The notes under the pieces were generated by a model. It worked only from the letters and a program-made list of their open reading frames with translations, was not told the DNA's origin and did no database searches. The position numbers and the translations under genes were made by a program. From positions 1-42,482 of the forward strand of contig JAFQPL010000010.1 in the NCBI GenBank assembly GCA_017411785.1: 42,482 nucleotides of DNA. The letters run 5' to 3'. Shown here in pieces: positions 5,233 through 42,482 of this stretch (within the stretch, counting starts at the first letter, position 1; the number at the start of each line of letters is the position of its first letter). Source of the stretch: Clostridia bacterium (GTDB taxonomy: Bacteria; Bacillota; Clostridia; Oscillospirales; CAG-272).

Positions 5233-6099
5233 ATGAAAAAAGCCGGGAGCAAGAAAAACAACGAAAGAGTCAGAAGAGTGCTTTTAAGTAAGCAGTTTTG
5301 CATAAGCGTTCTCGTTGTAATGAGCCTTCTGGCTTTTATTTGCCTTGTTAAGCTTGTACTGGGATTTATGCCTGTAAGTAATTTTACATACAAGGGAGAA
5401 ACGCATTATGATATAAGCGAGCTTATAAATGCGTCGGGAATTCGCAGCGGCGACCGCTTATACAAGATAGACGAAAAGGCGGCAGTGGCAAGGATGGTAA
5501 GAGAATGTCCGTATCTTAAGACCGTGAAAATAGAAAAGAAATTTCCTAATACGGTATGCTTTGCCGTTGAAGAGCAGGAGCCCGGATGGTATATGCAGAT
5601 AGGAAATGATTTTTACGGACTTGATTTTGACCTCAAGGTGTTGCTTGAGACTTATCTTGAGCAGGATTTTATTGACAGAGGTCTAACAAAGCTTGTACTT
5701 CCCGAAATCGAGTCTGTGGTAGTCGGAGAGCTTCCCGAATTCGCGAGTGACGATGAGCAGCTCATAAAGGAAAGCTTGAAGATAGTTGATGCCTTCAGAA
5801 CTCACGATATAAAGAAAAGGCTCACGGGGCTTGATATCTCAAACAGATTTGAAATAAAGCTGGAGATAGATAACAGCTATGAGGTCTACTTTGGAGATAT
5901 GGTGAGCTTTGATATGAAAATGAAGTTCCTTGCGGCAGTATTGGAAAAAGCGGAGACGGACGGAGCCTCGGGAGGACGCATAACCTGGGGGGACGATAAC
6001 TTCGTTTTGAAAAAGGAGTATTCTCAAAAGGACGAGGACGAGGACGGCACAAAGACTCCCGAAAAGCCGAAGGAAGACCTTTTTGAAGGGGAAGATTAA
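5233..6099 (+). CDS. ftsQ: cell division protein FtsQ/DivIB (POTRA domain) with an acidic C-terminal tail
   Basis: It has a single N-terminal TM helix followed by a POTRA-like block (LKTVKIEKKFPNTVCFAVEEQEP). Its position between murG and ftsZ fits. Confidence 0.7.
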   Translation: MKKAGSKKNNERVRRVLLSKQFCISVLVVMSLLAFICLVKLVLGFMPVSNFTYKGETHYDISELINASGIRSGDRLYKIDEKAAVARMVRECPYLKTVKIEKKFPNTVCFAVEEQEPGWYMQIGNDFYGLDFDLKVLLETYLEQDFIDRGLTKLVLPEIESVVVGELPEFASDDEQLIKESLKIVDAFRTHDIKKRLTGLDISNRFEIKLEIDNSYEVYFGDMVSFDMKMKFLAAVLEKAETDGASGGRITWGDDNFVLKKEYSQKDEDEDGTKTPEKPKEDLFEGED

Positions 6100-6158
6100 C
6101 TTAACTGTTGTTTTTGTAAAATATTTTGTTAAAATATCGTAAAATTTTCAAAAACCTA

Positions 6159-6187
6159 TTGCAAAAAAACGTTTTTTATATTATTAT
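6159..6187 (+). promoter_or_regulatory. sigma-A-type promoter of ftsZ copy 1 (TTGCAA-17-TATTAT)
   Basis: TTGCAA lies at 6159-6164 and TATTAT at 6182-6187. The block CTATTGCAAAAAA...TATATTATTAT recurs upstream of ftsZ copy 2. Confidence 0.55.
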
Positions 6188-6238
6188 AATATATAGTATT
6201 ATTATCTTACACGTATATTTTTCAGGAGGAAGTTTGAA

Positions 6239-7279
6239 ATGGGTTTTGAGTATTACGATAACTGCGAAAGCGGAGTTTGCATAAAGGTCGTCGGTGTAGG
6301 CGGAGGCGGAAACAACGCGGTAAACCGTATGGTCAGCGACGGCGTAAAGGGCGTAGAATTTATTGCGGTAAACACGGACCGTCAAGCTCTTAAAAGCTCA
6401 CTTGCCGGCCGTAAGGTCGTTATAGGCGAGAAGATAACCAAGGGCTTTGGCGCGGGCGCTAAGCCTGAAATCGGAGCGCTCTCGGCAGAGGAGTCTATAG
6501 ACGAGATAAAGGCAGCTCTCAGCGGTGCGGATATGGTATTTGTAACTGCGGGAATGGGAGGCGGAACCGGAACGGGCGCGGCTCCTGTTGTAGCAAAGGT
6601 TGCGCATGATATGGATATACTTACCGTGGGTATAGTAACCAAGCCCTTTGAGTTTGAAGGTAAGAGAAGAATGGCTCAGGCGGAGCAGGGTATCGAGGAG
6701 TTTGCAAAGTACGTTGATTCCTTGGTCGTTATTCCCAACGAGCGTCTTAAATATATTTCCGAAAACAGAATAACCCTCTTTAATGCTTTCTCCGAGGCAG
6801 ACGGAATTCTCCGCAAGGGTGTTCAGTCTATATCCGAGCTTATTAATGTGTCTGCGTTTATTAATCTTGACTTTGCAGACGTTACCTCGGTAATGAATAA
6901 TTCAGGACTTGCGCATATGGGTATCGGAAGCGGTACAGGTAAGGACAAAGCAGAGATGGCTGCCAAGGCGGCAATCTCGAGTCCGTTGCTTGAGACCTCT
7001 ATAAACGGAGCTATGGGTGTTATAATCAGCATTTCCGCATCTCCCGATATTGGACTTGAGGACGTTGATATAGCAGCGGGAATGGTAAGAGCGGAGTGTA
7101 ACGAGGACGCGAATATAATCTTCGGTGTCGGTTTTGATGAAAATCTCTCCGATGAGATGAGAATAACAGTAGTTGCGACCGGCTTTACAAAGGACGGAGA
7201 CAAGGATTCGGCTAAGTCTGCGAAGGATGACGCTAAAAAGGCTGCAAGCCCCGAGGATTTTCTTGACGGATTGTTTTAA
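6239..7279 (+). CDS. ftsZ: cell division GTPase FtsZ (paralog 1)
   Basis: Motifs present: [13 protein letters not shown], the tubulin signature GGGTGTG, the T7 loop NLDFADV, and the C-terminal peptide PEDFLDGLF. The RBS is AGGAGGAAG. Confidence 0.93.
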
Positions 7280-7296
7280 TTGAACAGTTAATAAAT

Positions 7297-7338
7297 ATAG
7301 CGGTTTCTGCGTGCAGACCGCTATATTTATTTTTTTTG
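7297..7338 (+). terminator. intrinsic terminator after ftsZ copy 1
   Basis: The hairpin ATAGCGGT..CTG/CAGACCGCTAT is followed by ATTTATTTTTTTTG. Confidence 0.7.
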
Positions 7339-7368
7339 TAAAAAAGGGGAGAATTTTTAGTAAAACTA

Positions 7369-7397
7369 TTGCAAAAAATCAAAAAATATATTATTAT
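7369..7397 (+). promoter_or_regulatory. sigma-A-type promoter of ftsZ copy 2 (TTGCAA-17-TATTAT)
   Basis: TTGCAA lies at 7369-7374 and TATTAT at 7392-7397. The block is near-identical to the one at 6156-6187. Confidence 0.55.
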
Positions 7398-7436
7398 ATA
7401 AGTAATAGAAAAATTACGGTAAAGGAGCTTCAAAAA

Positions 7437-8450
7437 ATGAGTTACGAAAATGAATATGGCGTAAAAATAAAGGTCGTAGGAGTCGGCGGCGGCGGAAATA
7501 ATGCGGTCAACCGTATGATAGCTTCCGATGTAAAGGGCGTTGAGTTTATCGCAATAAATACCGATAAGCAGGCTCTTAAAAAGTCTCTTGCAACTACTCA
7601 GCTGGCAATTGGAGAAAAGATTACTAACGGATTTGGCGCAGGCTCAAATCCCGAGATAGGAAAGAGAGCTGCCGATGAGGCTTACGCTGAGATAAAGAAG
7701 CTTCTTACAGGCGCCGATATGGTGTTTATAACCGCGGGAATGGGCGGCGGAACAGGAACGGGTGCTACTCCCTTTGTTGCAAAGGCTGCAAAGGAGCTTG
7801 ATATACTTACGGTTGCGGTTGTGACCACTCCTTTTGCATTTGAGGGTAAAAAGAGAATGCTTCAGGCAGAGGTAGGTATAGCAGAGCTTGGTGAGTACGT
7901 TGATTCCTTGGTAGTTATTCCTAATGAGAGACTCAAGCTTGTTGCAGATTCAAGAATTTCTCTTGCAACGGCATTCTCAGAGGCAGACGACGTTCTTCGC
8001 AGAGGTGTTCAGTCTATATCCGATCTTATCAATAACCTTGGATTTATCAATATCGACTTTGCTGACGTAACCTCGATCCTTGAGCATTCAGGCGTTGCTT
8101 ATATGGGAATGGGTAAGGCAAGCGGTAAGGATAAGGCGCAGATCGCTTCCAATATGGCGATCTCCAGTCCTCTCATAGAGACCTCTATCAAGGGCGCAAA
8201 GGGCGTTATTATCAGTATCGCCGCATCCGCAGAGGTAGGACTTGAGGACGTTGATTTTGCCGCAAACGCAATAAGAAACGAGTGCAACGAGGATGCAAAT
8301 ATTATCTTCGGCGTTGCATTTGATCCTTCACTTGAGGATGAGATGAGAATTACTATTATCGCGGCAGGCTTTAACTCTAACGACGATAAGAAAGAAGAAA
8401 AGAAGGAAGCCGCTCCCGCAAGTGACGATTTCTTCGCAGGTCTGTTTTAA
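7437..8450 (+). CDS. ftsZ: cell division GTPase FtsZ (paralog 2)
   Basis: The start [27 protein letters not shown] follows the RBS AAAGGAG. It has GGGTGTG, NIDFADV and the C-terminal peptide SDDFFAGLF. The track ORF start at 7311 runs through the promoter and terminator and is rejected. Confidence 0.92.
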
Positions 8451-8470
8451 TTTTAAGTCTTAAAACAAAT

Positions 8471-8498
8471 AAAAAAGAGCCGTTGGCTCTTTTTTATT
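8471..8498 (+). terminator. intrinsic terminator after ftsZ copy 2
   Basis: The hairpin AAGAGCC-GTT-GGCTCTT is followed by TTTTATTT. Confidence 0.8.
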
Positions 8499-8581
8499 TA
8501 AGGTATTTACAAAATTTGCGCAGAATGATATAATATTTATGCTGTGTAATGCTTTCAGAAATCTGTCTGACGGAGGATAAA

Positions 8582-9694
8582 ATGAAGAGATTTTTAGCAC
8601 TTATTTTGTCGCTTTTATTTGTTCTTGGCGCGCTTCTTGCCTGCGGAAAGAAGAAATCTGCCGATACTGATGCTTATAAACAAAACGCGGAAGGCGAAAA
8701 TACACTCGATGATGAGCTTACTGAGCTTGGGGAAAATGTTGTATATGACAATAAGGATGATGAGCCTCAACCTCACGTTCCCAAGGCGGAAAGCACGGCG
8801 GGGCTCGCCTTTGAACCGACTGCTGACGGAAGGGAATATGTGCTTACGGGTAAGGGAACCTGCTCGGCTGTTAATATAGTTATAGACGGATATAATGATT
8901 TGCCCGTAACGGCTATTGCGCCGTCTGCCTTTACGGATTTCACCTCGTTGATAGGCGTATCGTTGGGCGGAGGTATAAAAAGCATAGGTCCCGATGCATT
9001 TTCGGGATGTACGAGTCTTGCTAATATAATTTTTCCCGCAAGTCTTACGAATATAGGTGAGGGAGCATTCCGCGGTTGTAGCGCGCTTGCTAATGTAACC
9101 TTCAGCGAAGGTATTGAGCGAATAGGCGCTTGGGCTTTTTCAAATTGTACCTCTCTTACGAGAATATCCTTGCCTGAGGGCTTAAAGGATATTGGCGGTT
9201 CGGCGTTTTATTCCTGCGAGAAGCTTATGAGCATAACGCTTCCCGATACGGTAACGAAAATAGGTAATTCGGCCTTTTATAATACCGAGTATTACAATGA
9301 CGCAAAGAACTGGTCAAAGGAGGTTCTCCTCATAGGAGATTGCTTGATAGATGTTAAGAAAAGCGTAGAGGGACAGTATTATGTGCTTCCGCAGGCGAGA
9401 GTCATTGCAGACGGAGCGTTTTATGCCTGCAAGGGTATTACAACGCTATCTCTGCCGATGGATCTTACCCACATAGGCGATTACGCCTTTTATTCCTGCT
9501 CCGCATTGGAGAGCGTGGAAATTTACGACACGGTGATATCGATTGGCGCGTCAGCCTTTGCCGATTGCTCGGCTATTAAAGAGGTAAATATTGTCAAGAC
9601 CGGAGAATGGGTTGGTGATGAAAACGCCGAAAATAAAGGAAATCTTCCGATGTCGAACGATGAAATTTTAAAAGCCATAAAGCCGCAGGCTTAA
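8582..9694 (+). CDS. BspA-type leucine-rich-repeat surface lipoprotein
   Basis: The signal peptide MKRFLALILSLLFVLGALLACGKK has the lipobox LLAC. It is followed by repeated ~23-aa units (I.I..SV..IG..AF..C.SL). ATG 8582 follows GGAGGA. Confidence 0.8.
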   Translation: MKRFLALILSLLFVLGALLACGKKKSADTDAYKQNAEGENTLDDELTELGENVVYDNKDDEPQPHVPKAESTAGLAFEPTADGREYVLTGKGTCSAVNIVIDGYNDLPVTAIAPSAFTDFTSLIGVSLGGGIKSIGPDAFSGCTSLANIIFPASLTNIGEGAFRGCSALANVTFSEGIERIGAWAFSNCTSLTRISLPEGLKDIGGSAFYSCEKLMSITLPDTVTKIGNSAFYNTEYYNDAKNWSKEVLLIGDCLIDVKKSVEGQYYVLPQARVIADGAFYACKGITTLSLPMDLTHIGDYAFYSCSALESVEIYDTVISIGASAFADCSAIKEVNIVKTGEWVGDENAENKGNLPMSNDEILKAIKPQA

Positions 9695-9824: not shown

Positions 9825-11168
9825 TTAAAGCTTAATTACGTCAATTTCCTCTATTCCGTAATAAAGAAGAAGCTCTGCCGCCTCTGCGGTAATCAGCTCT
9901 CCGCTTACTATCGGTGGAATCGCAGGCGGGCAGGACACGCTCGGAGCGGCGCATATGCGCCCCACGGCTTTTTTTACGTTGATCCTTTCGCTTTGCGAAA
10001 AGATCGCTTCCCGCAGTGAAAGCGCTTGCTTGCAGGGAAGAATTCGCGGAGGACAGGCAACACTTGCGTTTCGCGCAGGGATGCTTGCAAAGGTTGATTT
10101 TATCCTTTCAAAATCGACATCCGCGGTTTCTGTGGATATCATAAGAACGAGCGCGTCAAGGTCTGCGTACTCGGGCTCCACGCTATGCTCTCTCAAGCGG
10201 GACGCAAGCTCGATGCCCGAATAGGAGCAGGAGTCTCTCGTTATTACGATTTTAAGGCTCTCATCTCCCGCAGAATCAAAGCCCAAAGCCGCAAGCTCGT
10301 TTTTTAGCGCATCTACCTTTTTTTCGACGGCGGCAAGCTTTTCGCTAAAGCCGTTAGCGAGATACGCGTTAGTCAGGTCAAGCGATTGAAGCGTGAGATA
10401 CGACGGACTTGTTGAGGCAAAGAGGGAAAGCATATTTCTGGTGTCATCCTTGTCAAAGGGGGTAAAGCTCTTTGAAATATGCAGATACGCGCCGCCCGTG
10501 AGCGTGGGAAGCGTTTTGTGCGCCGAATCGCAACACATATCTGCCCCGAGAGCGATTGGATGCCGTGAGGGTCGCTCAAAGGCCAAATACGCGCCGTGTG
10601 CGTTATCTACGAGCAGATATATGCCGAACTCCTTGCAGACCTCGGAAAGCCCCTTTATATCAAGAATTTCGCCGAGATATGTCGGAGAGGTGACGTAAAG
10701 GGCGCAGGGAAGCTCGCTCATTGAGGAGAGCTTGCGTTTAAGCTCGGAGGGATTAAGACTGCAATCGCAAAGATGCAGAGGCTTGTCGGGATATATCCAG
10801 TCTACCTCAAAATCAAGCAGCGCGCAGGCGTAAATAAACGCCTTGTGTATATTGCGCGCGGCAAGGATTTTTGACTTCTTTTTTGAATTGCGCTTGACCA
10901 GAGCAAGCATAGCCTTTATTGCGAGAGTTGAGCCCTCGGTAGAGTAAAAGGTGTGCGCAGTGCCGAATAGCTTTGCCGCGTTCCTCTCACTTTCATCAAT
11001 TATTCCGTTTGCCGAGTACAGCACATCGGCTCCGTTTATTTCGGTTATATCAAATGCTTCGCAGCCTAAAAGCGAATTGCCCTTGTGTGCGGGCATATGT
11101 AAACGGGATATATTATCGGCTGCATAGTGCTTTACAAAGTCGGCGATAGGTGTTGTTATTTTACTCAT
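9825..11168 (-). CDS. PLP-dependent Orn/Lys/Arg decarboxylase-family protein
   Basis: The N-terminus (LHMPAHKGN...DITE..G.D.L......I.ESE..AA.LFG...TF..T.GST) and a later SAHKTLP lysine motif are typical of the major domain of this decarboxylase family. The start ATG overlaps the maturase stop in ATGAGTAA, an 8-nt overlap. Confidence 0.75.
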   Translation of the reverse strand: MSKITTPIADFVKHYAADNISRLHMPAHKGNSLLGCEAFDITEINGADVLYSANGIIDESERNAAKLFGTAHTFYSTEGSTLAIKAMLALVKRNSKKKSKILAARNIHKAFIYACALLDFEVDWIYPDKPLHLCDCSLNPSELKRKLSSMSELPCALYVTSPTYLGEILDIKGLSEVCKEFGIYLLVDNAHGAYLAFERPSRHPIALGADMCCDSAHKTLPTLTGGAYLHISKSFTPFDKDDTRNMLSLFASTSPSYLTLQSLDLTNAYLANGFSEKLAAVEKKVDALKNELAALGFDSAGDESLKIVITRDSCSYSGIELASRLREHSVEPEYADLDALVLMISTETADVDFERIKSTFASIPARNASVACPPRILPCKQALSLREAIFSQSERINVKKAVGRICAAPSVSCPPAIPPIVSGELITAEAAELLLYYGIEEIDVIKL

Positions 11169-12549
11169 CTGCTTCTGCTACCTGCAGCATAACGGCACAT
11201 TCAATGCGCTTTTTGAAAAGCTCGCATCCGTACTCATAGACACCGTTTATACTGCCTGTTGCGTGATATGCATTCGCGGCGCATCCGCCCGAGCAGTAAA
11301 GCCTTGCCCAGCAGTCTGCGCATTCGGGACGCGCGTAAGCGTTACACGAACGGAATTCATCCTGAATTGCGGTGTTTGTAATGCCGTCATAGATATTTCC
11401 AAGACTGTATTTTGGGTCTCCCACAAACTGATGACAGGGGAAAAGCTCACCCCAAGGAGTTACAGCCATATATTCGGTACCCGAACCGCAGCCCGTTATT
11501 CGCTTGTAGATACAGGGACCGTTCTTGAGGTCAAGCATATAGTGATAGAAGGTAAAGGGGCGGCCTTCCTTTTTGCGCTTGATCATTTCCTTTGCAAGAA
11601 TTTCGTATTGCTCGAATATTTTTGGCATATCTTCTTTTGTAAGAGCGCAAGGGTCGGTTGGCGCGCAAACTACGGGCTCCATACTCAGCTCGGTAAATCC
11701 GAGGTCTGCCATATGCAATATGTCGTTGGTAAAATCGACGTTGTTGTGAGTAAAGGTTCCGCGAACGTAATAATCCTTTCCGCCGCGGGCTTCAACGAGC
11801 CGTCTGAATTTGGGAACTATCCTTTCGTAGCTTCCGTTACCTGCGTAATCCTTGCGGAAAAGGTCATGAACCTCACGTCTGCCGTCAAGGCTGAGTACGA
11901 CGTTGCTCATTTCCTTGTTGAGAAAATCTATAACCTCGTCATCTATAAGCAGACCGTTGGTCGTAAGGGTAAATCTGAAATTTTTATTGTGTTCCTTTTC
12001 TATACTGCGCGCATAGGCAACAAGCTGCTTTACCACGTCCCAGTTCATAAGAGGCTCGCCGCCGAAGAAGTCCACCTCAAGATTTCTGCGAGTTCCCGAA
12101 TTTTCAATAAGAAAATCAAAGGCGCGTTTTCCTACCTCAAAGCTCATGACCGCGCGGTCGCCTTGATATTTTCCTTGGCTTGCAAAGCAATAGGAGCAGT
12201 TAAGATTGCAGGTGTGCGCTACGTGTAAGCAAAGCGCCTTTATTACCTTGCTGTTGTTTTTATAATTGCAGGCAAGCGCTTCGTATTCATCCTTTGAATA
12301 AAGCTTTCCCGCATCCTCAAGTGAGCGTACGTCGTCTATACAAGCGAGGATCTCATCCTTGGTAACGCTTGCATCGTCGGCGTATTTTTCAAGCATAGCC
12401 GAAACTATCTGCTCGGGGGAGCTTGTTTTGTACATTTCGATTATATCGTAAGCGACCTCGTCAACTGCGTGGACAGAGCCGCTTGCAGTGTCGAGAACTA
12501 TATTGTAGCCGTTAAGCTTGTACTGATGTACCATATTTATATACCTCAA
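11161..12549 (-). CDS. scfB: radical SAM/SPASM thioether-forming maturase for the SCIFF peptide
   Basis: It has the CNLNCSYC radical SAM cluster motif, a C-terminal Cys-rich SPASM region (CGSG...C...C..C....C.GGC), and sits immediately downstream of a SCIFF precursor. Confidence 0.88.
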   Translation of the reverse strand: MRYINMVHQYKLNGYNIVLDTASGSVHAVDEVAYDIIEMYKTSSPEQIVSAMLEKYADDASVTKDEILACIDDVRSLEDAGKLYSKDEYEALACNYKNNSKVIKALCLHVAHTCNLNCSYCFASQGKYQGDRAVMSFEVGKRAFDFLIENSGTRRNLEVDFFGGEPLMNWDVVKQLVAYARSIEKEHNKNFRFTLTTNGLLIDDEVIDFLNKEMSNVVLSLDGRREVHDLFRKDYAGNGSYERIVPKFRRLVEARGGKDYYVRGTFTHNNVDFTNDILHMADLGFTELSMEPVVCAPTDPCALTKEDMPKIFEQYEILAKEMIKRKKEGRPFTFYHYMLDLKNGPCIYKRITGCGSGTEYMAVTPWGELFPCHQFVGDPKYSLGNIYDGITNTAIQDEFRSCNAYARPECADCWARLYCSGGCAANAYHATGSINGVYEYGCELFKKRIECAVMLQVAEADE

Positions 12550-12613: not shown

Positions 12614-12763
12614 TTACTTGTTATCTGAATTCTCGCATTTCTGGTTTGCAACGCCGCAAGACGTCTTGCAAGCGGACTGGCAAGAGGTTTGGCACTCACC
12701 GCAGCCGCCGTTCTGTACGGTTTTTGCAATATCTTTAGTTTCGATCGTCTTAATTCTGCTCAT
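12614..12763 (-). CDS. scfA: SCIFF (six-cysteines-in-forty-five) ranthipeptide precursor, 49 aa
   Basis: The peptide is MSRIKTIETKDIAKTVQNGGCGECQTSCQSACKTSCGVANQKCENSDNK. This is the characteristic SCIFF sequence with GG followed by six Cys. The RBS GGAGGT lies 7 nt upstream of ATG 12763. The longer track ORF (to 12880) is rejected. Confidence 0.92.
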   Translation of the reverse strand: MSRIKTIETKDIAKTVQNGGCGECQTSCQSACKTSCGVANQKCENSDNK

Positions 12764-14404: not shown

Positions 14405-14448
14405 TAAATAAAAAATGAAAGGTTGCTGCCGTGTTCGGCAGCAACCTT
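14405..14448 (-). terminator. intrinsic terminator downstream of the ferredoxin gene
   Basis: A perfect 13-bp stem AAGGTTGCTGCCG-TGTT-CGGCAGCAACCTT (14419-14448) is followed on the minus strand by TCATTTTTTATTT. Confidence 0.85.
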
Positions 14449-14470
14449 GTCAAAATGCGTTGTCCGTAAA

Positions 14471-14641
14471 TCAGTCGGCAGTGGGAGCCTCAACAGGACA
14501 AGCCTCTGCGCAAGCGCCGCACTCGATGCACTCGTCTGCGTTTATCTCGTACTTGCCGTCGCCCTCGGTAATAGCGCTTACGGGGCAAGCATCTGCACAA
14601 GCGCCGCAAGCGATGCAAGCGTCTGTAATCTTGTATGCCAT
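14471..14641 (-). CDS. fdx: clostridial-type 2x[4Fe-4S] ferredoxin, 56 aa
   Basis: Manual reverse-complement translation gives MAYKITDACIACGACADACPVSAITEGDGKYEINADECIECGACAEACPVEAPTAD*. It contains two CxxCxxCxxxCP motifs, and a GGAGGT RBS lies upstream. The ORF is too short for the ORF track. The track ORFs at 14415-14762, 14423-14647 and 14490-14747 are shadows of it. Confidence 0.93.
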   Translation of the reverse strand: MAYKITDACIACGACADACPVSAITEGDGKYEINADECIECGACAEACPVEAPTAD

Positions 14642-14675
14642 AATTAATTACCTCCATAAATTTTACTGTACATAC

Positions 14676-14703
14676 ATTGTAGCACATAATTTCAGAATTG
14701 CAA
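14676..14703 (-). promoter_or_regulatory. sigma-A-type promoter for the ferredoxin gene (TTGCAA-16-TACAAT with TGn)
   Basis: On the minus strand, TTGCAA lies at 14703-14698 and TACAAT at 14681-14676, preceded by TGC. Confidence 0.5.
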
Positions 14704-14891
14704 GAGAAAAAGCAAAAAAAATATATAAAATTTTTAAAAAAATACATTTTTTATCTTTTTGAGGTGCTTTTTTTAAAAACAAAATAAAAGCTTCAAATTT
14801 TATAAAAAATTTTTGTTGCACCCTAATACGACAATTTTTACGTAAAGTATATGTTAAAATTTAACGGCGGAAACAAAAAGGAGGATAAAAA

Positions 14892-15236
14892 ATGCTTAAG
14901 AAAAATTGTACATTAGAGCTTGACGGAAATCGTGAAGAGCTTACCGTTATTTTAAGGGGAGAGATCGACCATTACACTGCGGCATGGGTAAGAAGCGAAA
15001 TAGACGCAAGTATATCCGAGCTTCGTCCTAAGCGGACGGTCTTTGTTCTTTCGGAGATAGATTTTATGGATAGCTCGGGTATAGGTCTTATTATGGGCCG
15101 ATATGCGAAGATGCAGAATATAGGCGGCACGCTCGCGGTAAGAGATCCGAGCGATCGGGTCGAGAGAATATTCAAGCTTGCGGGACTTGAAAGGATAATA
15201 GAGCTTGAGAAGGGAGAAAAAAACAATGAGAACTAA
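14892..15236 (+). CDS. spoIIAA: anti-sigma-F factor antagonist (STAS domain)
   Basis: It is a STAS protein with the phosphorylatable DSSGIG motif, and it is the first gene of a three-gene sigF operon. The RBS is AAGGAGGA. Confidence 0.88.
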   Translation: MLKKNCTLELDGNREELTVILRGEIDHYTAAWVRSEIDASISELRPKRTVFVLSEIDFMDSSGIGLIMGRYAKMQNIGGTLAVRDPSDRVERIFKLAGLERIIELEKGEKNNEN

Positions 15237-15699
15237 TCTTGAAAAAGAAAAAAACAGATTTTCCGGAGCGGTTATAAATGAAATGCGTATAAAGCTTCCG
15301 TCTCTTTCGGTGAATGAGTCTGTGGCAAGATCGGTAGTAGCTGCGTTTTGCGCTCAGCTCGATCCCTCTGCCTGTGAGGTGGCGGATATAAAATGCGCCG
15401 TAAGCGAGGCGGTAACCAATTGTATAGTACACGCGTACAAGGATTCCGTGGGGATAATCTACATAACGGTGAAGCTTTGCGAGGGCAGAACGGTAAGAGT
15501 TGAGATACGTGACAGAGGCAGAGGAATAGAGAACGTAAGACTTGCGCGGCAGCCCCTGTATACGACCGATGCCGAAAATGAGCGAAGCGGAATGGGCTTT
15601 ACCGTAATGGAAAGCTTTTGTGATAGAGTGAGGGTGAATTCGCAATGCAAAAAGGGAACTACGGTAACGCTGTACAAGCTGTTGAAGAATCGGGAATAG
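15226..15699 (+). CDS. spoIIAB: anti-sigma-F factor (serine protein kinase)
   Basis: It has HATPase-type motifs (EAVTNCIVHAY, DRGRGI, SGMGF). It overlaps the spoIIAA stop. ATG 15226 is preferred to TTG 15205. Confidence 0.88.
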   Translation: MRTNLEKEKNRFSGAVINEMRIKLPSLSVNESVARSVVAAFCAQLDPSACEVADIKCAVSEAVTNCIVHAYKDSVGIIYITVKLCEGRTVRVEIRDRGRGIENVRLARQPLYTTDAENERSGMGFTVMESFCDRVRVNSQCKKGTTVTLYKLLKNRE

Positions 15700-16457
15700 A
15701 GCAAGAGTTCAAAAACGGGAGAGGTTATTCTAAAAATATAGATCTCGTCAGAATAGCGCAAGGGGAGGATGAGGAGCTTTCCATGCGAGCTACAGAGGAG
15801 CTTGTTATCCTTAACCGAGGTCTTGTGAGAAGCGTTGCCATACGCTTTCGAGATAGAGGGGTGGAGATTGAGGATCTGATACAAATAGGTACGATAGGGC
15901 TTATAAAGGCTATCAGAAGCTTTGATGTAGGACGGGGTACTCTTTTTTCGACCTACGCCGTTCCCATGATATTCGGAGAGATACGCAGAGCGCTTCGCGA
16001 TGAGGGCATGATAAAGGTTGGAAGGTATTATAAATCACTCGGTGTTCAGCTTGCGAGAGCAAAAAACGAGCTTGTAATGCAATACGGAGATGGCGTTCAT
16101 ATTTCGATGATCGCCGAGGCGGTAGGAGTCAGCGTCGAGGAGGCGGCTGTTGCGCTTGATGCTATGTCTGCTCCGATGTCGCTTTCCGATTTCGTTTACG
16201 GTGATGAGGACGGCACGGTTCTTGAGGATACTATTGCCGACAAGGACAGTCTTGAATATAACAAAAAATTCTTTGAAAGAATGGCTCTGAGAGAGGCGAT
16301 CGATAAAATGAACGAGCTATGGCAAAAGATACTCGTTTTGCGGTTTTTCAGAAATAAAACTCAACAGCAGGTAGCCGATATTCTTGGACTGTCGCAGGTC
16401 AAGGTATCAAGGGAAGAAAAGAAAATAGTTGAATTTTTGAGAAATGAAATGAGATGA
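15645..16457 (+). CDS. sigF: sporulation sigma factor SigF
   Basis: It has sigma-70 region 2 (DLIQIGTIGLIKAIRSFD, STYAVPMIFGEIRR) and the region 4 HTH (QQQVADILGLSQVKVSREEKK). The only in-frame canonical start upstream of region 1.2 is ATG 15645, which overlaps spoIIAB by 55 nt. Confidence 0.85.
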   Translation: MQKGNYGNAVQAVEESGIEQEFKNGRGYSKNIDLVRIAQGEDEELSMRATEELVILNRGLVRSVAIRFRDRGVEIEDLIQIGTIGLIKAIRSFDVGRGTLFSTYAVPMIFGEIRRALRDEGMIKVGRYYKSLGVQLARAKNELVMQYGDGVHISMIAEAVGVSVEEAAVALDAMSAPMSLSDFVYGDEDGTVLEDTIADKDSLEYNKKFFERMALREAIDKMNELWQKILVLRFFRNKTQQQVADILGLSQVKVSREEKKIVEFLRNEMR

Positions 16458-20972: not shown

Positions 20973-22070
20973 TTATTTGTTAAAAGTATTTATCCATTCA
21001 TTGCGCGCAAGCTCATATGTAAAAATTTGCGCGGCACGAGTTGGGTCGGAAAGCTCATCTGCATAAATGGATTTACCGTTTATCTGCCAGCCGTAAGGGT
21101 TTTCAAGCCTCAGCTTCTTTAGTGAATCGCAACCGACAAAGGTCTCCTCCCAAATGAATTTAACCGTATCGGGAATAGAGATGCTTTCGAGTGCGGAGCA
21201 ATACTTAAAGGCTTGCAGACCTATAGATGATAGATGCTTTGGCAGGGTAATATCTGTAAGCTTATCGCAGGAGAAAAAGGCTCGCCCGCCTATTACCTCG
21301 AGGCTTTGCGGCAAGTCTAAGCTTGAAATTGCCGAGCATTCGTAAAAGGCTTCGTTTCCGATAATACGCAGAGAGCCTTGATCTGAAAAGCTTACGGCAG
21401 AAAGTGAGGCGCATCCTCGGAAAGCGCCGCGTTCAATGCTTTTTAGCAGGCATCTGTCCGCAAATATAAGACTTTTAAGATGCTTGCAGGAGCTAAAGCT
21501 CCATTCTCCGAGATAAACTACGCTTGTGGGGATTTCAACCGAATTGAGAGAGGCGCCCGAAAAGGCGTAATCACCAATCGATCTAAGCGCTTGCGGAAGA
21601 TCGGCTTGTAGGATGCCACAGTCTGAAAAGGCGTATCTGCCGATAGAGATAAGACCTTTGGGTAATTCTATGTGCTCGAGGCTTTTGCATCCTATAAAAG
21701 TGTAATTGCTTATTTTGCTTAATTTGCGCGGAAGCGTTACCGATGAAAGAGCGGTACAAAAGCCGAATGCCCGTTTGCCTATTGAATTAACGGTATCGGG
21801 GATTGAAATTGATTTTAGGCTTGAGCAACGGTAAAACGCCTTTTCACCTATCTCAAGAAGATCTTCAGGAAGCTTTACCGAGATTATTTTATCGTGCTTG
21901 CAAAATGCAAAAGGCGCGATTTTTTTTACAGGAAATCCTTCATAGGAGTCTGCGATTACAATGTTGGATAAATCCTCATCACAACCCGTGATAGTGGCTA
22001 TACCGTTTTCTATAGTGTAGAAAATTCCCGCCGAGGAGCCCGAGCGTTGTATAGAATTGATTTCTTTCAT
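20973..22070 (-). CDS. BspA-type leucine-rich-repeat protein with no recognisable signal peptide
   Basis: It contains about 12 tandem ~23-aa LRR_5-like units (L..I.IP..V..IG..AF..C..L). The RBS is AAGGAGGAG. Confidence 0.8.
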   Translation of the reverse strand: MKEINSIQRSGSSAGIFYTIENGIATITGCDEDLSNIVIADSYEGFPVKKIAPFAFCKHDKIISVKLPEDLLEIGEKAFYRCSSLKSISIPDTVNSIGKRAFGFCTALSSVTLPRKLSKISNYTFIGCKSLEHIELPKGLISIGRYAFSDCGILQADLPQALRSIGDYAFSGASLNSVEIPTSVVYLGEWSFSSCKHLKSLIFADRCLLKSIERGAFRGCASLSAVSFSDQGSLRIIGNEAFYECSAISSLDLPQSLEVIGGRAFFSCDKLTDITLPKHLSSIGLQAFKYCSALESISIPDTVKFIWEETFVGCDSLKKLRLENPYGWQINGKSIYADELSDPTRAAQIFTYELARNEWINTFNK

Positions 22071-22091: not shown

Positions 22092-22120
22092 ATTATAGCA
22101 TAAAACCCTTTGTTTTTCAA
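22092..22120 (-). promoter_or_regulatory. near-consensus sigma-A promoter reading into the LRR gene (TTGAAA-17-TATAAT with TGn)
   Basis: On the minus strand, TTGAAA lies at 22120-22115 and TATAAT at 22097-22092, preceded by TGC. It directly abuts the repeat array. Confidence 0.65.
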
Positions 22121-22300
22121 GTGAAATATTCGGCGTTGCCGAATGTGAAATAATTCACTTTGTGAATTGTGAAATATTGCTACCTTTGGTCGCAATGTGA
22201 AATGAAATTCGCCACTTCACATTTGCGAAGCAAATATTTCACAGCGGAGCTATTTCACTTGGCGGAGCCATATTTCACTTGCCGAAGGCGAATTTCGTTG
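22121..22300. repeat. GTGAAAT/ATTTCAC motif plus mini-hairpin array (copy 1 of a two-copy element)
   Basis: GTGAAAT occurs at 22121, 22145, 22169 and 22197. The complement ATTTCAC occurs at 22236, 22252 and 22272. Spacers are short self-complementary segments (CGGCGTTGCCG, ATTTGCGAAGCAAAT, TGGCGGAGCCA, GCCGAAGGC). The array is homologous to 30545-30757 in inverted orientation. Confidence 0.85.
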
Positions 22301-22343: not shown

Positions 22344-22417
22344 TGGCTGGGGTGGAAAGAATCGAACTTTCCCGGCGAGAGTCAAAGTCTCGTGTCCTAC
22401 CACTAGACTACACCCCA
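22344..22417 (-). tRNA. tRNA-Gln (anticodon UUG)
   Basis: The reverse complement TGGGGTGTAGTCTAGTGGTAGGACACGAGACTTTGACTCTCGCCGGGAAAGTTCGATTCTTTCCACCCCAGCCA folds as a cloverleaf. The acceptor stem is TGGGGTG/CACCCCA, the anticodon stem CGAGA/TCTCG, the anticodon loop CTTTGAC and the T-arm GAAAG-TTCGATT-CTTTC. CCA is encoded. Confidence 0.9.
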
Positions 22418-26171: not shown

Positions 26172-27008
26172 ATGGCGGTATTTAAAAGCTTTGATAAAAA
26201 AAGAATAGCCTTTGTAGGAAACAGCTTTACCTTTTACGGTAAATGTGTAAACGTTAACGCTTTTGACGGACTTGACGACGGTTATTTTTATCAGCTTGCC
26301 AGGAGTCTTGGCGATGATGTAACCGTAACTAATTTTACTTGGGGCGGTGCAAGCTTTTGGCATAAGGGAAGCGGATTTGCTCAAAGGATGCTGTATGAGA
26401 AGATGAAGGAGCTTCATCCTGCCTATTATAATAATCCCGAGGGGCTTCCTGTTGAGGATTTTTACCGTCAGGATGCGGTAGTGCTTCAACAGTCGGGAGA
26501 CAGGATAAAGGAGACCTATGAGGACGCAAGGCTTATAATGAGCCTTTTTGCTCCCGAAACCGTTTTTGGCTTTTATATTACTACCTATGATGCTTTTCAT
26601 GATTTTGAGCCAAGCTTTGAGGCGGCAGAGCGTATAAGAGACGGAGGCGGAGTTTATATTCCGCTCGGGCATATGGTAAACGATATAATCAAGGGTAACG
26701 CTATGGTTAAGGATTCGAAATTTGAATATAATAAGAATTCTTTTATAGTATGTAAGGAGGGCGACGGATTTCATCCTAATACGCTTACGGGATACCTTAC
26801 CGCGCTTACGGTATATTACGCGTTTACCGAAAGAGATATAACCGATGCGGCATACGATTTTGCCTGTGGCCTTGATAAAGAAAAGCATTATACCTTGGGA
26901 GAGACCAATCACGGTGAGATACTTTGCTCCGATAAGGAGCTGCGGTCGCTTAAGGAGCAGGTAATGCTGTATTGTAGGAGATATAATGCAAAACAAGATG
27001 AGCGGTAA
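26172..27008 (+). CDS. SGNH/GDSL-like hydrolase-fold protein (DUF4886-like); function unknown
   Basis: It has block I IAFVGNSFT, a GG block, and block V DGFHPN (DxxH). It starts 7 nt after the P-II-like gene. The antisense ORF 26106-26996 is rejected. Confidence 0.55.
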   Translation: MAVFKSFDKKRIAFVGNSFTFYGKCVNVNAFDGLDDGYFYQLARSLGDDVTVTNFTWGGASFWHKGSGFAQRMLYEKMKELHPAYYNNPEGLPVEDFYRQDAVVLQQSGDRIKETYEDARLIMSLFAPETVFGFYITTYDAFHDFEPSFEAAERIRDGGGVYIPLGHMVNDIIKGNAMVKDSKFEYNKNSFIVCKEGDGFHPNTLTGYLTALTVYYAFTERDITDAAYDFACGLDKEKHYTLGETNHGEILCSDKELRSLKEQVMLYCRRYNAKQDER

Positions 27009-30308: not shown

Positions 30309-30383
30309 GCTGGTGTGGCTCAATGGCAGAGCAGCTGATTTGTAATCAGCAGGTTGTTGGTTCGACTCCGATCACCAGCTCCA
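30309..30383 (+). tRNA. tRNA-Thr (anticodon UGU)
   Basis: GCTGGTGTGGCTCAATGGCAGAGCAGCTGATTTGTAATCAGCAGGTTGTTGGTTCGACTCCGATCACCAGCTCCA folds as a cloverleaf. The acceptor stem is GCTGGTG/CACCAGC, the anticodon stem GCTGA/TCAGC, the anticodon loop TTTGTAA and the T-loop TTCGACT. CCA is encoded. Confidence 0.9.
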
Positions 30384-30414
30384 AAGAGGCTTCACCAAGT
30401 GGAGCCTAAAATAT

Positions 30415-30499
30415 GGGGGATTTCCCGAGCGGCCAAAGGGGGCAGACTGTAAATCTGTTGTCACTGACTTCGGTGGTCCGAATCCACCATCCCCCACCA
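30415..30499 (+). tRNA. tRNA-Tyr (anticodon GUA), class II with a long variable arm
   Basis: The sequence is GGGGGATTTCCCGAGCGGCCAAAGGGGGCAGACTGTAAATCTGTTGTCACTGACTTCGGTGGTCCGAATCCACCATCCCCCACCA. The acceptor stem is GGGGGAT/ATCCCCC, the anticodon loop CTGTAAA, the variable stem GTC/GAC and the T-arm GGTGG-TCCGAAT-CCACC. The T-loop has C at position 55. Confidence 0.85.
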
Positions 30500-30544
30500 G
30501 AAAAAAGCACACATTTGTCTACTAAGACAATGTGTGCTTTTTTC
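30500..30544 (+). terminator. intrinsic terminator flush with the tRNA-Tyr 3' end (part of the repeated element)
   Basis: The sequence is GAAAAAAGCACACATTTGTC-TACTAA-GACAATGTGTGCTTTTTT. It is near-identical to 22301-22342 on the opposite strand. Confidence 0.85.
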
Positions 30545-30757
30545 AACGAAATTTGCCCTGCGGGCAAGTGAAATAGCTGTGCTGTGAAATATTTGCTTCG
30601 CAAATGTGAAATATTCGCTGACGCGAATGTGGGCAAATTTCATTTCACATCGAACAGAGCCGTAGGCGACGTGAGATATTTCACAATGCGCAATAGCACA
30701 TTATTTCACGTTTTGCGCAAGCAAAACATTTCACTGCAACCGCAGGCGATGCATCAT
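30545..30757. repeat. GTGAAAT/ATTTCAC motif plus mini-hairpin array (copy 2)
   Basis: GTGAAAT occurs at 30568, 30584 and 30606. ATTTCAC occurs at 30642, 30678, 30703 and 30728. Spacers form short hairpins (TTGCCCTGCGGGCAA, ATTTGCTTCGCAAAT, ATTCGCTGACGCGAAT, TTTTGCGCAAGCAAAA). Confidence 0.85.
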
Positions 30758-30810: not shown

Positions 30811-31266
30811 ATGAAAAAAATGTTATTTATTTTGTTTGCAACTGTCCTGTTGTTAAGTATGACAGCTTGTAACGGTTATAATGGAATTATGCGAGAACAT
30901 CTTAGCGATGAAGATAATTATCAAGATATCGAGGCAACATTTTGCTCATATAAAGAAGCCGACGGCCGAATTTATCTGTATGTTTCCGTTGAGGACAAAT
31001 CAGCTTTTGATTCTTCCGAAGCGAACAGTGAAGAAATCAGATTGGAATTAGTGGGTGATAATTGCAATGTTCTTAGCGAAGTCCTTGCAAAAGAAGAGAT
31101 ATGCGAGGGCGATAGAATTACTGTAAAATGCTCGACGTGGATCTATATGGATTCAACGTTTTACTATGTCGCCGAAATAAAAAATCAAGATAAAATATTT
31201 TTATCGTTTGATGATGGCTTAAAAAACATCATAAAGTATGTTAACGATAATAAAGCTTTACTTTGA
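30811..31266 (+). CDS. small lipoprotein of unknown function (151 aa)
   Basis: The signal peptide MKKMLFILFATVLLLSMTAC carries a lipobox. The RBS is GAGGAG. I recognised no conserved catalytic motif. Confidence 0.65.
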   Translation: MKKMLFILFATVLLLSMTACNGYNGIMREHLSDEDNYQDIEATFCSYKEADGRIYLYVSVEDKSAFDSSEANSEEIRLELVGDNCNVLSEVLAKEEICEGDRITVKCSTWIYMDSTFYYVAEIKNQDKIFLSFDDGLKNIIKYVNDNKALL

Positions 31267-38435: not shown

Positions 38436-39068
38436 ATGATAAAAATTGAACGATGCTCGGTAATGAATTTTGAAAACGCAATAAGAGGCGCGAGAAATCC
38501 TCTTAACAGCTGGGACAGAATGGATAGCTACTACGATGAGAACGGAAATTATGTTCTTGGAGAGAACGATTTGAGTCTTGCTAAGAGGCTATCTCACGCG
38601 GGAAGCGACCACAGAAAGTTTCTGCGCCAGATATTTGTATCGGTCGATATAACAGCTCCTTTGTATTGGTGGAAGGAGTTTGATACTTATAAGGTCGGAA
38701 CGGTTGCAAATTCTTGCTCTACAATGCATAAAATTCACGCAAAGGCCTTTGAGCGCGAGGACTTTTCCTGCGACAGACTTGATGAGGGCGGTCTTGCGGC
38801 ACTTGACGCGCTTGTTGAGTATCTCGAGGCGGAAAGAGTCAAGTTCTGCGAGGATAAGACCAATAAGCAGGCGTGGCACAATATGATACAGTTATTGCCG
38901 TCAAGCTATAATCAGATGAGAACGGTGACGCTTAATTATGAGAATTTGATAAATATTTATTATGCAAGAAAAACGCATAAACTTGCAGAATGGCATACTC
39001 TTTGCGATTGGATAATGTCATTGCCTTATGCCGAGGATATTATTGCGGTAAAGGGCGAGCAAAATTAA
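38436..39068 (+). CDS. ThyX-fold (Thy1-like) protein lacking the RHR...S..R ThyX motif; function unknown
   Basis: Alignment by eye to ThyX spans the whole length (…DITAPLYWWKEFDTYKVG..NSCSTMH and LLP..Y......T.N...L.N....R..H...EW). The catalytic or ligand-binding arginines are replaced. Confidence 0.55.
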   Translation: MIKIERCSVMNFENAIRGARNPLNSWDRMDSYYDENGNYVLGENDLSLAKRLSHAGSDHRKFLRQIFVSVDITAPLYWWKEFDTYKVGTVANSCSTMHKIHAKAFEREDFSCDRLDEGGLAALDALVEYLEAERVKFCEDKTNKQAWHNMIQLLPSSYNQMRTVTLNYENLINIYYARKTHKLAEWHTLCDWIMSLPYAEDIIAVKGEQN

Positions 39069-39274: not shown

Positions 39275-40366
39275 ATGAACAGAGTTTACAATTTTTCGGC
39301 GGGCCCGTCAATGCTTCCCATAGATGTCCTTAACAAAGCAGCGGCTGAGCTCGTTTGTTACGGAGAATCCGGAATGTCGGTAATGGAGATGTCCCACCGT
39401 TCTCCGGACTATGAGGCTATTATAAACGACGCAGAGGCTATGCTTCGTCAGCTTATGAATATCCCCGATAATTATAAGGTTCTTTTCCTTCAGGGCGGAG
39501 CTTCAACGCAGTTTGCCGCAGTTCCTCTTAACCTTATAAAGAGAACAGGAAAGGCTGATTACGCGGTGTCGGGTCAGTTCTCAGGTAAGGCGTTTAAGGA
39601 GGCTCAGAAGCTTGGCTACGATGTTAAGTGCATAGCTACTACCAAGGATGATAATTTTGATCACGTTCCTGTTATCACTAAGGATATGATAAGAGAGGAT
39701 GCAGCATATCTTCATATTTGCTTCAATAATACTATTTACGGAACAAAGTATCCCTACATTCCCGAGACCGGCGATATTCCGTTGGTTGCCGACCTTTCAT
39801 CCTGCATAATCTCCGAGCCTGTTGACGTAAGCAAGTTCGGCGTTATCTACGCAGGCGCGCAGAAGAATATGGCGCCCGCAGGACTTACGCTTGTTATAGT
39901 TCGCGAGGATCTTCTTGATTACGCTGAGGAGAAGATGCCTACTATGCTTGAGTGGAAAACTATGGCAGAGAACGGCTCTATGTATAACACGCCTCCTTGC
40001 TACACTATCTATATGGCAAAGCTCGTTTATGAGTGGATCCTCTCGATCGGCGGTCTTGATGCGATGAAGAAGATGAACGAGACCAAGGCGGCTATTCTTT
40101 ACGATTACCTTGATTCTCAGGACTATTACGTAGCTCCCGTTAAAAAGGAAAGCCGTTCTATGATGAACGTAACCTTTGTTACGGGTGATGCCGACCTTGA
40201 TAAGAAGTTTGCAAGCGAAGCCGCAAAGGCAGGTCTTAAGAACCTTAAGGGTCACCGTTCGGTTGGCGGAATGAGAGCATCTATCTATAATGCAATGCCT
40301 AAAGAGGGTGTTGAAGCGCTTGTTGCGTTTATGAAGAAATTTGCCGAGGAAAATCCCAAGGCTTAA
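39275..40366 (+). CDS. serC: phosphoserine aminotransferase
   Basis: Motifs present: YNFSAGPS.LP, S.MEMSHRS, FLQGGAS.QF, GAQKN..PAG and GGMRAS.YNA. Confidence 0.92.
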   Translation: MNRVYNFSAGPSMLPIDVLNKAAAELVCYGESGMSVMEMSHRSPDYEAIINDAEAMLRQLMNIPDNYKVLFLQGGASTQFAAVPLNLIKRTGKADYAVSGQFSGKAFKEAQKLGYDVKCIATTKDDNFDHVPVITKDMIREDAAYLHICFNNTIYGTKYPYIPETGDIPLVADLSSCIISEPVDVSKFGVIYAGAQKNMAPAGLTLVIVREDLLDYAEEKMPTMLEWKTMAENGSMYNTPPCYTIYMAKLVYEWILSIGGLDAMKKMNETKAAILYDYLDSQDYYVAPVKKESRSMMNVTFVTGDADLDKKFASEAAKAGLKNLKGHRSVGGMRASIYNAMPKEGVEALVAFMKKFAEENPKA

Positions 40367-40395
40367 TTATTACTTTGAATTTGAAAGAGGTTTTT

Positions 40396-41544
40396 ATGAA
40401 AAACGTACTTTGTCTTAATAAGATTGCCGCAATAGGCACTGATCTTCTTGATAAAAACGTATATAACGTAGGTACGGAGGTCGCAAACCCCGATGCTATA
40501 ATGGTTCGCTCTGCGGCTATGCATGAAATGGAATTCGGAGCAGAGCTTAAGGCTATCGCAAGAGCAGGAGCGGGCGTTAATAACATTCCCGTTGACCGTT
40601 GCGCAAAGGAGGGAATAGTTGTATTCAATACTCCGGGTGCAAACGCAAACGGCGTTAAGGAGCTTTCTGTCTGCGCTCTTATGCTTGCTTCGCGTGATAT
40701 AGCGGGAGCTATGAAATGGGCAGAAACTCTTGCAGGCACAGAGGGAGTTGCTAAGGCAGTTGAAGCAGGAAAGTCCAAGTTTGCAGGCGTTGAGGTTAAG
40801 GGCAAGACCCTTGGAATCATCGGACTTGGCGCAATCGGAGCGCTTGTAGCAAACGCGGGTATAGCTCTTGGAATGAAGGTCATCGGATGCGATCCCTTTA
40901 TGAGTGTTGACGCGGCTTGGAAGCTTGATCCCGCGGTGGAGAAGGCTACAACCTTTGCCGAGGTTTTTGAAAAGGCTGATTATATTTCTCTTCATGTTCC
41001 CGCAACGAAGGATACAAAGGGAATGATCAACGCAGAAACTATTGCAACGATGAAGAACGGTGTAAGAGTTATAAACCTTGCGCGTGCCGATCTTGTTAAT
41101 AATGCCGATATCAAGGCGGCAATTGCCGACGGTAAGGTCGCAAAATACGTAACTGATTTCCCGACCGAAGAAACCGTTGGAGTGGAGGGAATAGTTGCTA
41201 TTCCTCACCTTGGAGCATCTACCGCAGAGTCCGAGGATAACTGCGCAGTTATGGCGGCACTTCAGCTTGACGATTTCCTTCGTAACGGAAATATCAAGAA
41301 TAGCGTAAACTTTGCTAACGTATCTATGGCTCGCAGCGGAGACGCAAGAATTTGCGTGCTTTCCGCGGCAACCGATACGCTCGTTGCGGATATCACTGCG
41401 GCGGCAGGGGTTGCTATCGTAGGTATCGCAAGTAAGGCAAGAGGCGAGAACGCATACACTATTATCGACGTAAACGGCGACGCAAGTGCGGCTGTAGCTA
41501 ATATAGCGGCTCTTGACTCTGTTTACAGAGCTTATGCGATATAA
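40396..41544 (+). CDS. serA: D-3-phosphoglycerate dehydrogenase with a C-terminal ACT-like domain
   Basis: It has 2-hydroxyacid dehydrogenase motifs (GIIGLGAIG, LARADLV, PHLGAST) and follows serC. ATG 40396 after AAAGAGG is preferred to the track TTG at 40375. Confidence 0.88.
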   Translation: MKNVLCLNKIAAIGTDLLDKNVYNVGTEVANPDAIMVRSAAMHEMEFGAELKAIARAGAGVNNIPVDRCAKEGIVVFNTPGANANGVKELSVCALMLASRDIAGAMKWAETLAGTEGVAKAVEAGKSKFAGVEVKGKTLGIIGLGAIGALVANAGIALGMKVIGCDPFMSVDAAWKLDPAVEKATTFAEVFEKADYISLHVPATKDTKGMINAETIATMKNGVRVINLARADLVNNADIKAAIADGKVAKYVTDFPTEETVGVEGIVAIPHLGASTAESEDNCAVMAALQLDDFLRNGNIKNSVNFANVSMARSGDARICVLSAATDTLVADITAAAGVAIVGIASKARGENAYTIIDVNGDASAAVANIAALDSVYRAYAI

Positions 41545-41567
41545 ATTAAATTGAATTGGATAATATT

Positions 41568-41610
41568 GAGGGGGAAGAAACTTTCTTGAAAGAAAGCTTT
41601 CTTCCCCCTC
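41568..41610 (+). terminator. 19-bp hairpin after serA, without a canonical U-tract
   Basis: The hairpin is GAGGGGGAAGAAACTTTCT-TGAA-AGAAAG(C)TTTCTTCCCCCTC. It is followed by AACCCCTATCTTC. Confidence 0.5.
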
Positions 41611-41802
41611 AACCCCTATCTTCAAAGAACTTTACTCTTGGTGTTGTATCAAAACGATATTTCGGTCTACGTTTTGTATGTATGAAATTAAAGTCCAAGC
41701 AATTGCTTTTTCTTTGCGTCGAATTCTTCTTGATGTAAATAGGTGCCAAAAATTTTTTATATTTGATTTTGATAAAATAATATCTTTTTTTATCAAATTT
41801 TA

Positions 41803-41887: not shown

Positions 41888-42482
<595 letters not shown>

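Follow-up and report, generated by a model that had tools for sequence, protein, structure and literature searches.

Two full-length ftsZ genes in tandem, each with its own copy of one promoter, in a clade of uncultured gut Clostridia

We analysed a stretch of 42,482 nucleotides from a Clostridia bacterium (assembly GCA_017411785.1, contig JAFQPL010000010.1, positions 1 to 42,482), referred to below as the window. At the end of its cluster of genes for division and the cell wall (dcw) it carries not one but two genes for the tubulin-like division protein FtsZ, here called ftsZ-A and ftsZ-B, or A and B for short. The genes and control elements of this locus are the following:

5233-6099, + strand: ftsQ/divIB-like gene (Pfam POTRA_1, E = 7.8e-8), the final dcw gene before the ftsZ pair
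6124-6188, + strand: ftsZ-A promoter, consisting of an A/T-rich upstream block, a -35 element TTGCAA (6159-6164), a 17-nucleotide spacer and a -10 element TATTAT (6182-6187)
6239-7279, + strand: ftsZ-A, 346 residues, the ancestral-like, slower-evolving paralogue (TIGR00065, Pfam Tubulin and FtsZ_C)
7290-7338, + strand: ftsZ-A intrinsic terminator, a stem of 15-17 bp at 7290-7331 followed by a T-run
7334-7398, + strand: ftsZ-B promoter, a copy of the ftsZ-A promoter with -35 element TTGCAA (7369-7374), a 17-nucleotide spacer and -10 element TATTAT (7392-7397)
7437-8450, + strand: ftsZ-B, 337 residues, the derived paralogue (TIGR00065, Pfam Tubulin and FtsZ_C)
8467-8499, + strand: ftsZ-B intrinsic terminator, probably bidirectional, with the inverted repeat AAAAAAGAGCC-GTT-GGCTCTTTTTT
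near 6194 (A) and near 7404 (B), + strand: transcription starts predicted by a consensus scan

Both genes encode complete FtsZ proteins. Against the TIGR00065 FtsZ equivalog model (cut-off 295.2 bits) ftsZ-A scores 407.5 bits and ftsZ-B 400.1 bits, and both products match Pfam Tubulin (PF00091; E = 7e-51 for A and 3e-50 for B) and Pfam FtsZ_C (PF12327; E = 1.2e-30 and 6e-30, respectively). The motifs T1 (GGGGNN), T4 (GGGTGTG), T5/H5 (PFxFEGxxR) and T6 (IPNERL) are intact in the two translations. The same applies to the T7 synergy loop NxDxxD with its catalytic aspartates, which reads NLDFADV in A and NIDFADV in B and aligns with N205-D210 of Mycobacterium tuberculosis FtsZ. Since A and B match the solved FtsZ structures of Bacillus subtilis, Staphylococcus aureus and M. 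tuberculosis (PDB 2vam, 3vo8 and 1rlu) at E ~1e-100, the FtsZ fold of both copies is certain.

The two proteins are 65% identical over 323 residues (BLASTP), or 67% over gap-free core columns. Synonymous sites approach saturation, differing in a proportion (pS, Nei-Gojobori) of 0.66, and the longest exact DNA word common to both genes is 20 nucleotides. Recent gene conversion between A and B was rejected on the strength of this short common word and of a synonymous divergence (dS) of 0.9-1.6 within genomes. A longer open reading frame beginning at GTG 7311 was also rejected as the start of ftsZ-B, because orthologues begin at M(S/N/D)(Y/F)ENE. GC content and codon usage of ftsZ-B are native. 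A rough codon-adaptation index, for which pgk, tpi, rpsF, ssb and tkt served as reference genes, amounts to 0.67 for A and 0.73 for B, other dcw genes ranging from 0.54 to 0.65; these values are a weak hint that neither copy would be an accessory gene of low expression.

The similarity of the two copies extends to the DNA in front of them. A direct repeat of 65 nucleotides (71% identity) spans both promoters, 6124-6188 versus 7334-7398, and within it the pattern CTATTGCAAAAAA-N8-TATATTATTAT occurs exactly twice in the 42-kb window, at 6156-6187 and 7366-7397, where 100 shuffles lead one to expect none. The core of this ancestral, ftsZ-specific promoter of the sigma-70 type reads TATTGCAAAA-N11-ATATATTATYAT. 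We scanned 865 kb, made up of the window and related loci, for the motif TATTG(C/A)AAAA-N9-13-ATAT(A/G)TTAT(C/T/G)AT with two mismatches allowed. Of 42 matches, 40 sit on the coding strand 30-110 nucleotides upstream of an ftsZ start. The motif precedes A, B and also the single ftsZ of sister lineages (loci L018-L033 and L080), and it is retained by those B copies that lie outside the dcw cluster (L008, L009 and L011). That this non-coding motif is conserved between species with saturated synonymous sites is good evidence for a functional promoter.

Folding of the terminators yields -22.2 kcal/mol (z = -6.1) for ftsZ-A and -16.9 kcal/mol (z = -4.1) for ftsZ-B. A hairpin follows ftsZ-A at the same position in 11 related loci, its sequence varying from locus to locus. 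In L015, L016 and L020 the spacer between A and B measures 32-73 nucleotides and lacks both terminator and promoter, which implies that A and B are co-transcribed there. As read from the sequence, then, transcription units are mostly two monocistronic ones, with a bicistronic form in three species and a B gene relocated together with its promoter in a few. Because the same conserved promoter serves both genes and an operon form exists in three species, A and B are probably expressed together. One further locus, L006, carries an 873-bp insertion between ftsZ-A and ftsZ-B (1491-2363), which the retained A terminator and B promoter flank.

Next, we consider the C-terminal ends, which read PEDFLDGLF in A and SDDFFAGLF in B. 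Throughout the duplicated clade, both A and B tails consist of a short linker and an acidic-hydrophobic end, DDΦFxxΦF-COOH, without a basic tail. Basic residues are absent from the last eight positions in 117/120 B-type and 104/120 A-type cluster representatives, and the linkers of A and B are very short (~15-20 residues). In single-copy relatives the linkers are long and the tails canonical, with a basic end as in ...DFDEIMSMLRRGRRRDDYRGRR or ...DDTFYDIMSIFNK; other tail ends among them are ...IMSMLRRGRRRDDYRGRR and ...FYDIMSIFNK. Both copies have thus swapped the long linker and basic tail of their single-copy relatives for a short linker and an acidic-hydrophobic end. The consensus is LDLDD(L/I/W)(L/F)G(D/G)(I/L/M)F, or DDFLDGLF, for A-type tails and DDFF(A/D)G(M/L)F for B-type tails, and the two differ in most lineages of the clade. 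In the window lineage the tails are almost identical (EDFLDGLF in A versus DDFFAGLF in B), which suggests a common partner.

The pair is not confined to the window. A genome scan with one genome per species (GTDB r232) returned 80 loci; all genomes compared are metagenome-assembled genomes (MAGs). By tblastn, two ftsZ genes are present in 16/81 sources including the window, and in 14 of these 16, that is, the window and 13 other species-representative genomes, they form an A-then-B tandem. Judging from record titles, the members of the clade are listed as Oscillospiraceae, Eubacteriales or Clostridia bacterium. Orthologues are 71-91% identical for A (13 genomes) and 68-92% for B. In the protein database A and B have separate relatives at 75-95% identity, which is above the 65% between A and B, and the same long contigs occur in both match lists. 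In the assembly collection, 78 indexed blocks contain the exact ftsZ-B protein, and among the matches listed the order ftsQ-ftsZA-ftsZB was found in 6/6 independent ENA contigs. Some genomes of the clade have a B-type ftsZ outside the dcw cluster (L008, 5974-7026; L011, 3527-4567; L009, 408-1442), its neighbours being GH3 glycosidase genes in L008 and a GAPDH gene in L011; the tandem arrangement is therefore not obligatory. In single-copy loci, relaxed tblastn revealed no pseudogene remnants of a lost copy, the sole short fragment being the contig-truncated first copy of L037.

A neighbour-joining tree built from corrected p-distances (95 FtsZ sequences, 342 columns, 100 bootstraps) unites all A-type and B-type sequences in one clade (bootstrap 96), inside which B is monophyletic (bootstrap 100). 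The branching order of species is mirrored between the A and B halves of the tree, and A-A and B-B distances run in parallel (r = 0.88). A and B of one genome never group together, which argues that no concerted evolution has taken place. Strong purifying selection works on both copies, since the ratio of non-synonymous to synonymous substitution rates (dN/dS, Nei-Gojobori) between orthologues is 0.04-0.12 for A and 0.04-0.08 for B. Evolution after the duplication was nevertheless asymmetric, and B is the derived copy: its stem has a length of 0.068 versus 0.018 for A, and lineage-unique changes are more numerous in B than in A in 13/13 genomes. A faster phase of B just after duplication gave way to divergence of both copies at the same slow rate within the clade.

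At ten positions A and B have different fixed residues, the one in B being derived in eight cases. Four of the sites are strongly diagnostic (A numbering): K135T, L210I, which lies inside the T7 loop, H226Y and T314A. The ancestral state at these four is found in ~100% of outgroups, and they split 240 metagenomic cluster representatives 120/120. Alignment to M. tuberculosis FtsZ, whose residues 5-315 carry the same numbers as those of B, places three diagnostic sites within or next to the T3 (residue 70), T5 (131) and T7 (206) loops. In FtsZ these loops form the lining of the nucleotide pocket, where subunits meet longitudinally, and the residues that B carries there may have a functional consequence.

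A neighbouring lineage of uncultured Clostridia holds a second tandem ftsZ duplication (L024, 5929-7233 and 7308-8564; L037, 3-83 and 407-1543). Its copy 2 forms a clade of its own (bootstrap 100) beside copy 1 and single-copy relatives (bootstrap 99); in L024, copy 2 ends ...DDEVDIWKW and copy 1 retains a basic tail. The idea that this pair goes back to the same duplication as A and B was rejected, copy 2 being ancestral at all four strong diagnostic sites and clustering separately.

An earlier note on this DNA, made from the letters of the window and a list of its open reading frames, had recognised two complete FtsZ proteins with cores about two-thirds to 70% identical, synonymous differences throughout, a duplicated unit that included the promoter, an intrinsic terminator for each copy and C-terminal peptides without a basic tail. 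The results given so far bear out each of these observations. The note had further taken the pair for an old, maintained duplication and had proposed a formal alignment and a dN/dS comparison; both were run, and together with the common clade of A and B and the 13 other genomes with the tandem they agree with that view.

An ancient, maintained duplication of the gene together with its promoter is close to certain. It was a single tandem duplication of ftsZ and its own promoter of the sigma-70 type, and it happened in the ancestor of a clade of uncultured Clostridia from animal guts. As the best explanation of the whole, we regard A and B as a true paralogue pair from this one duplication, acting as co-expressed isoforms in one Z ring, and we put the probability of this reading at roughly 0.6. 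For the mechanism our preference is more tentative and goes to co-assembly in one Z ring, with B tuning its dynamics. Both isoforms would be made simultaneously and both would enter the ring, as mixed filaments or as mixed bundles, the assembly dynamics of which B would tune. Heteropolymer formation, the second option named in the earlier note, is thus a plausible reading. Both tails would recruit the same or very similar partners, and the membrane anchor would not be encoded next to ftsZ.

Several points weigh against this explanation. Shared promoters and intact interfaces are all that points to co-assembly, and promoter differences that matter to regulation may escape a sequence scan. The monophyly of A has weak support (35-66), and the tree was made by neighbour-joining, not by maximum likelihood. 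At the diagnostic sites the exchanges are of a conservative kind (L to I, T to A, K to T), and certain of the residues occur also in ordinary single FtsZs of Actinobacteria. Finally, one A-type genome (L018) has no B copy within 6 kb, which means that loss or relocation of B does occur.

A stricter form of the same explanation is an obligate two-isoform ring, in which A and B would co-polymerise, the altered residues in the T3, T5 and T7 loops of B would set filament turnover, and the clade-specific DDΦFxxΦF tail would bind an anchor other than FtsA, ZipA or those partners of model bacteria that depend on a basic tail. We think this rather unlikely. If it were true, the ring would be a bacterial counterpart of plastid and archaeal dual-FtsZ rings, and the duplication in L024 and L037 would point to recurrent selection for dual FtsZ in gut Clostridia.

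The earlier note had suggested a division of labour between the vegetative and the asymmetric septum. Under this reading one FtsZ would build the mid-cell septum of vegetative cells, and the other would build the asymmetric one of sporulation or serve in engulfment. The sigF sporulation operon to which the note referred is indeed there: spoIIAA/spoIIAB/sigF-like genes occupy 14892-16457, 6.4 kb downstream of the ftsZ pair. Specialisation of this kind would also suit the fixed paralogue-specific residues of B and the difference between A and B tail consensus in most lineages, but the tails of the window lineage hardly differ, and at the level of transcription the proposal is disfavoured. Both genes keep the ancestral promoter, which drives the single ftsZ of sister lineages too, and three species co-transcribe the pair. 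No sporulation-sigma motif sets the two promoters apart, and no Spo0A box (TGTCGAA or TTCGACA) was seen by eye in either upstream region. Moreover, the single-copy sister lineages are likely to be spore-formers as well. On balance such a division of labour appears improbable.

We attach a low probability also to simple dosage or redundancy, where the second copy would only raise the supply of FtsZ and the two proteins would be interchangeable. Identical promoters, intact catalytic motifs and the similar tails of the window lineage are what one would expect of it. Dosage duplicates, however, are usually young or homogenised, and this pair has saturated synonymous sites, no gene conversion and no clustering of A with B by genome. 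Asymmetric evolution after the duplication and the fixation of paralogue-specific residues in all ~120 B-type cluster representatives also speak against interchangeable proteins.

Acquisition of ftsZ-B by horizontal transfer, from another Firmicute or on a mobile element that landed beside the resident gene, would account for the longer B branch and for B copies outside the dcw cluster (L008 and L011), and is nonetheless very improbable. A and B have their closest relatives in one another (bootstrap 96), the B promoter is the lineage-specific promoter of A and of the sister lineages, GC content and codon usage are native, and no mobile-element genes were found flanking ftsZ-B. Where all sources are metagenome assemblies, one might suspect an artefact of assembly or binning that merged two strains or species into a tandem which does not exist. 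The earlier note had already argued against this, and it can practically be dismissed. The copies share no more than 65% identity, assemblies made independently from different samples have the same junctions, A and B co-diverge in 13 other species, and the intergenic region has its own conserved terminator and promoter.

Compared with canonical bacterial FtsZ, A and B have everything that is usual, namely a full GTPase domain, T7 loop and FtsZ_C, followed by a linker that is disordered and a short peptide conserved at the C-terminus, and their genes come after ftsQ at the usual place, the end of the dcw cluster. They differ in being two, in their very short linkers and in the absence of a basic variable tail. 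With plastid FtsZ1 and FtsZ2 they share the long co-retention of two full-size paralogue families. Plastid FtsZ1 is devoid of the C-terminal core motif. In the clostridial pair A and B alike have kept the C-terminal peptide, so that an isoform without that motif, characteristic of the plastid-type pair, is not found; co-assembly, in our case, is a prediction. The plastid proteins (also FtsZB/FtsZA) have been described as a long co-retained pair thought to form one ring, with one isoform modulating dynamics (PMC12343686). In archaea, FtsZ1 and FtsZ2 play distinct parts when the ring assembles and constricts, SepF serving as anchor (bioRxiv 10.1101/2020.06.04.133736; PMC8178401). The likeness lies in two catalytically intact FtsZs per cell. 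Unlike A and B, which are tandem, 65% identical and under one promoter type, the archaeal pair stems from an archaeal ancestor, is unlinked and has diverged far more. Because the tree makes A and B sister clades within Clostridia (bootstrap 96), their duplication is independent of the plastid and archaeal ones.

Among bacteria, Alphaproteobacteria have FtsZ paralogues (FtsZ1 and FtsZ3 of Agrobacterium, and those of Hyphomicrobiales), and bacterial extra copies are often truncated (bioRxiv 10.1101/2025.09.29.679267, 10.1101/412759). These, too, are lineage-specific ftsZ duplications maintained by selection; unlike the truncated type, ftsZ-B is full length, with linker and C-terminal peptide. 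Two FtsZ copies have been listed for Atribacteria, Synergistetes, Bipolaricaulota, Armatimonadetes and Aquificae, Firmicutes not being on the list (PMC8178401), and across 937 Firmicutes proteomes FtsZ was classed as a monogenic, universal family (PMC8136486). In the literature searchable in full text we found no report of paired FtsZ in Clostridia. With A and B, Firmicutes have an FtsZ pair of independent origin that is full length and clade-wide. Both members have a C-terminal peptide and the same promoter, and the pair is unusual because Firmicutes are thought to carry a single ftsZ.

The dual-FtsZ systems that have been studied well come only from archaea, plastids and a small number of Gram-negative lineages in which the extra copy is often truncated. 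As a natural experiment, the clostridial pair bears on how functions are divided between FtsZ isoforms, on what the C-terminal variable tail is needed for and on how the Z ring is anchored where ftsA is unlinked to ftsZ. In practice, the four diagnostic residues together with the tail motif provide a sequence marker for the clade, and annotation pipelines should not flag a second ftsZ copy as contamination or redundancy in quality checks of MAGs.

As for the surroundings of the pair, the window carries the 3' part of the dcw cluster on the + strand, comprising murF, mraY, ftsW, murG and the FtsQ-type POTRA gene. The gene order mraY-ftsW-murG-ftsQ-ftsZ is kept in related loci, that of Ruminococcus and Acutalibacteraceae being murG-murA-ftsQ-ftsZ. 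In every related locus examined, the single-copy ones of Ruminococcus and Acutalibacteraceae included, ftsQ directly precedes ftsZ. The absence of ftsA between the two genes, to which the earlier note had drawn attention, is therefore real but no peculiarity of this organism. A Pfam scan of ~38 open reading frames detected neither ftsA nor sepF in the window.

Convergent with the ftsZ pair are a gene for a SCIFF six-cysteine peptide (12617-12763, - strand; PF13165, E = 1.7e-22) and the adjoining gene of a radical-SAM/SPASM maturase (11161-12549, - strand), a neighbourhood conserved in related loci. Six open reading frames of 112-420 codons, at 14415-14762 (+), 26172-27008 (+), 30811-31266 (+), 38436-39068 (+), 40363-41625 (-) and 41873-42211 (-), have no Pfam match at E <= 0.001. 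Two genes for BspA-type leucine-rich-repeat proteins with lipoprotein-like N-termini lie at 8549-9694 (+) and 20973-22070 (-). The former is inserted between ftsZ-B and a convergent decarboxylase gene only in the window and the L001 lineage, and has a strong promoter-like site of its own at 8506-8534 (TTTACA-17-TATAAT with an upstream TG). The window further contains three matches above the gathering threshold to the Gut-1 RNA motif (RF01706), an RNA for which we know of no function, at 22119-22208 (+), 22231-22300 (-) and 30544-30617 (+). These matches adjoin tRNA genes, namely tRNA-Gln at 22344-22417 and tRNA-Thr with tRNA-Tyr at 30309-30499.

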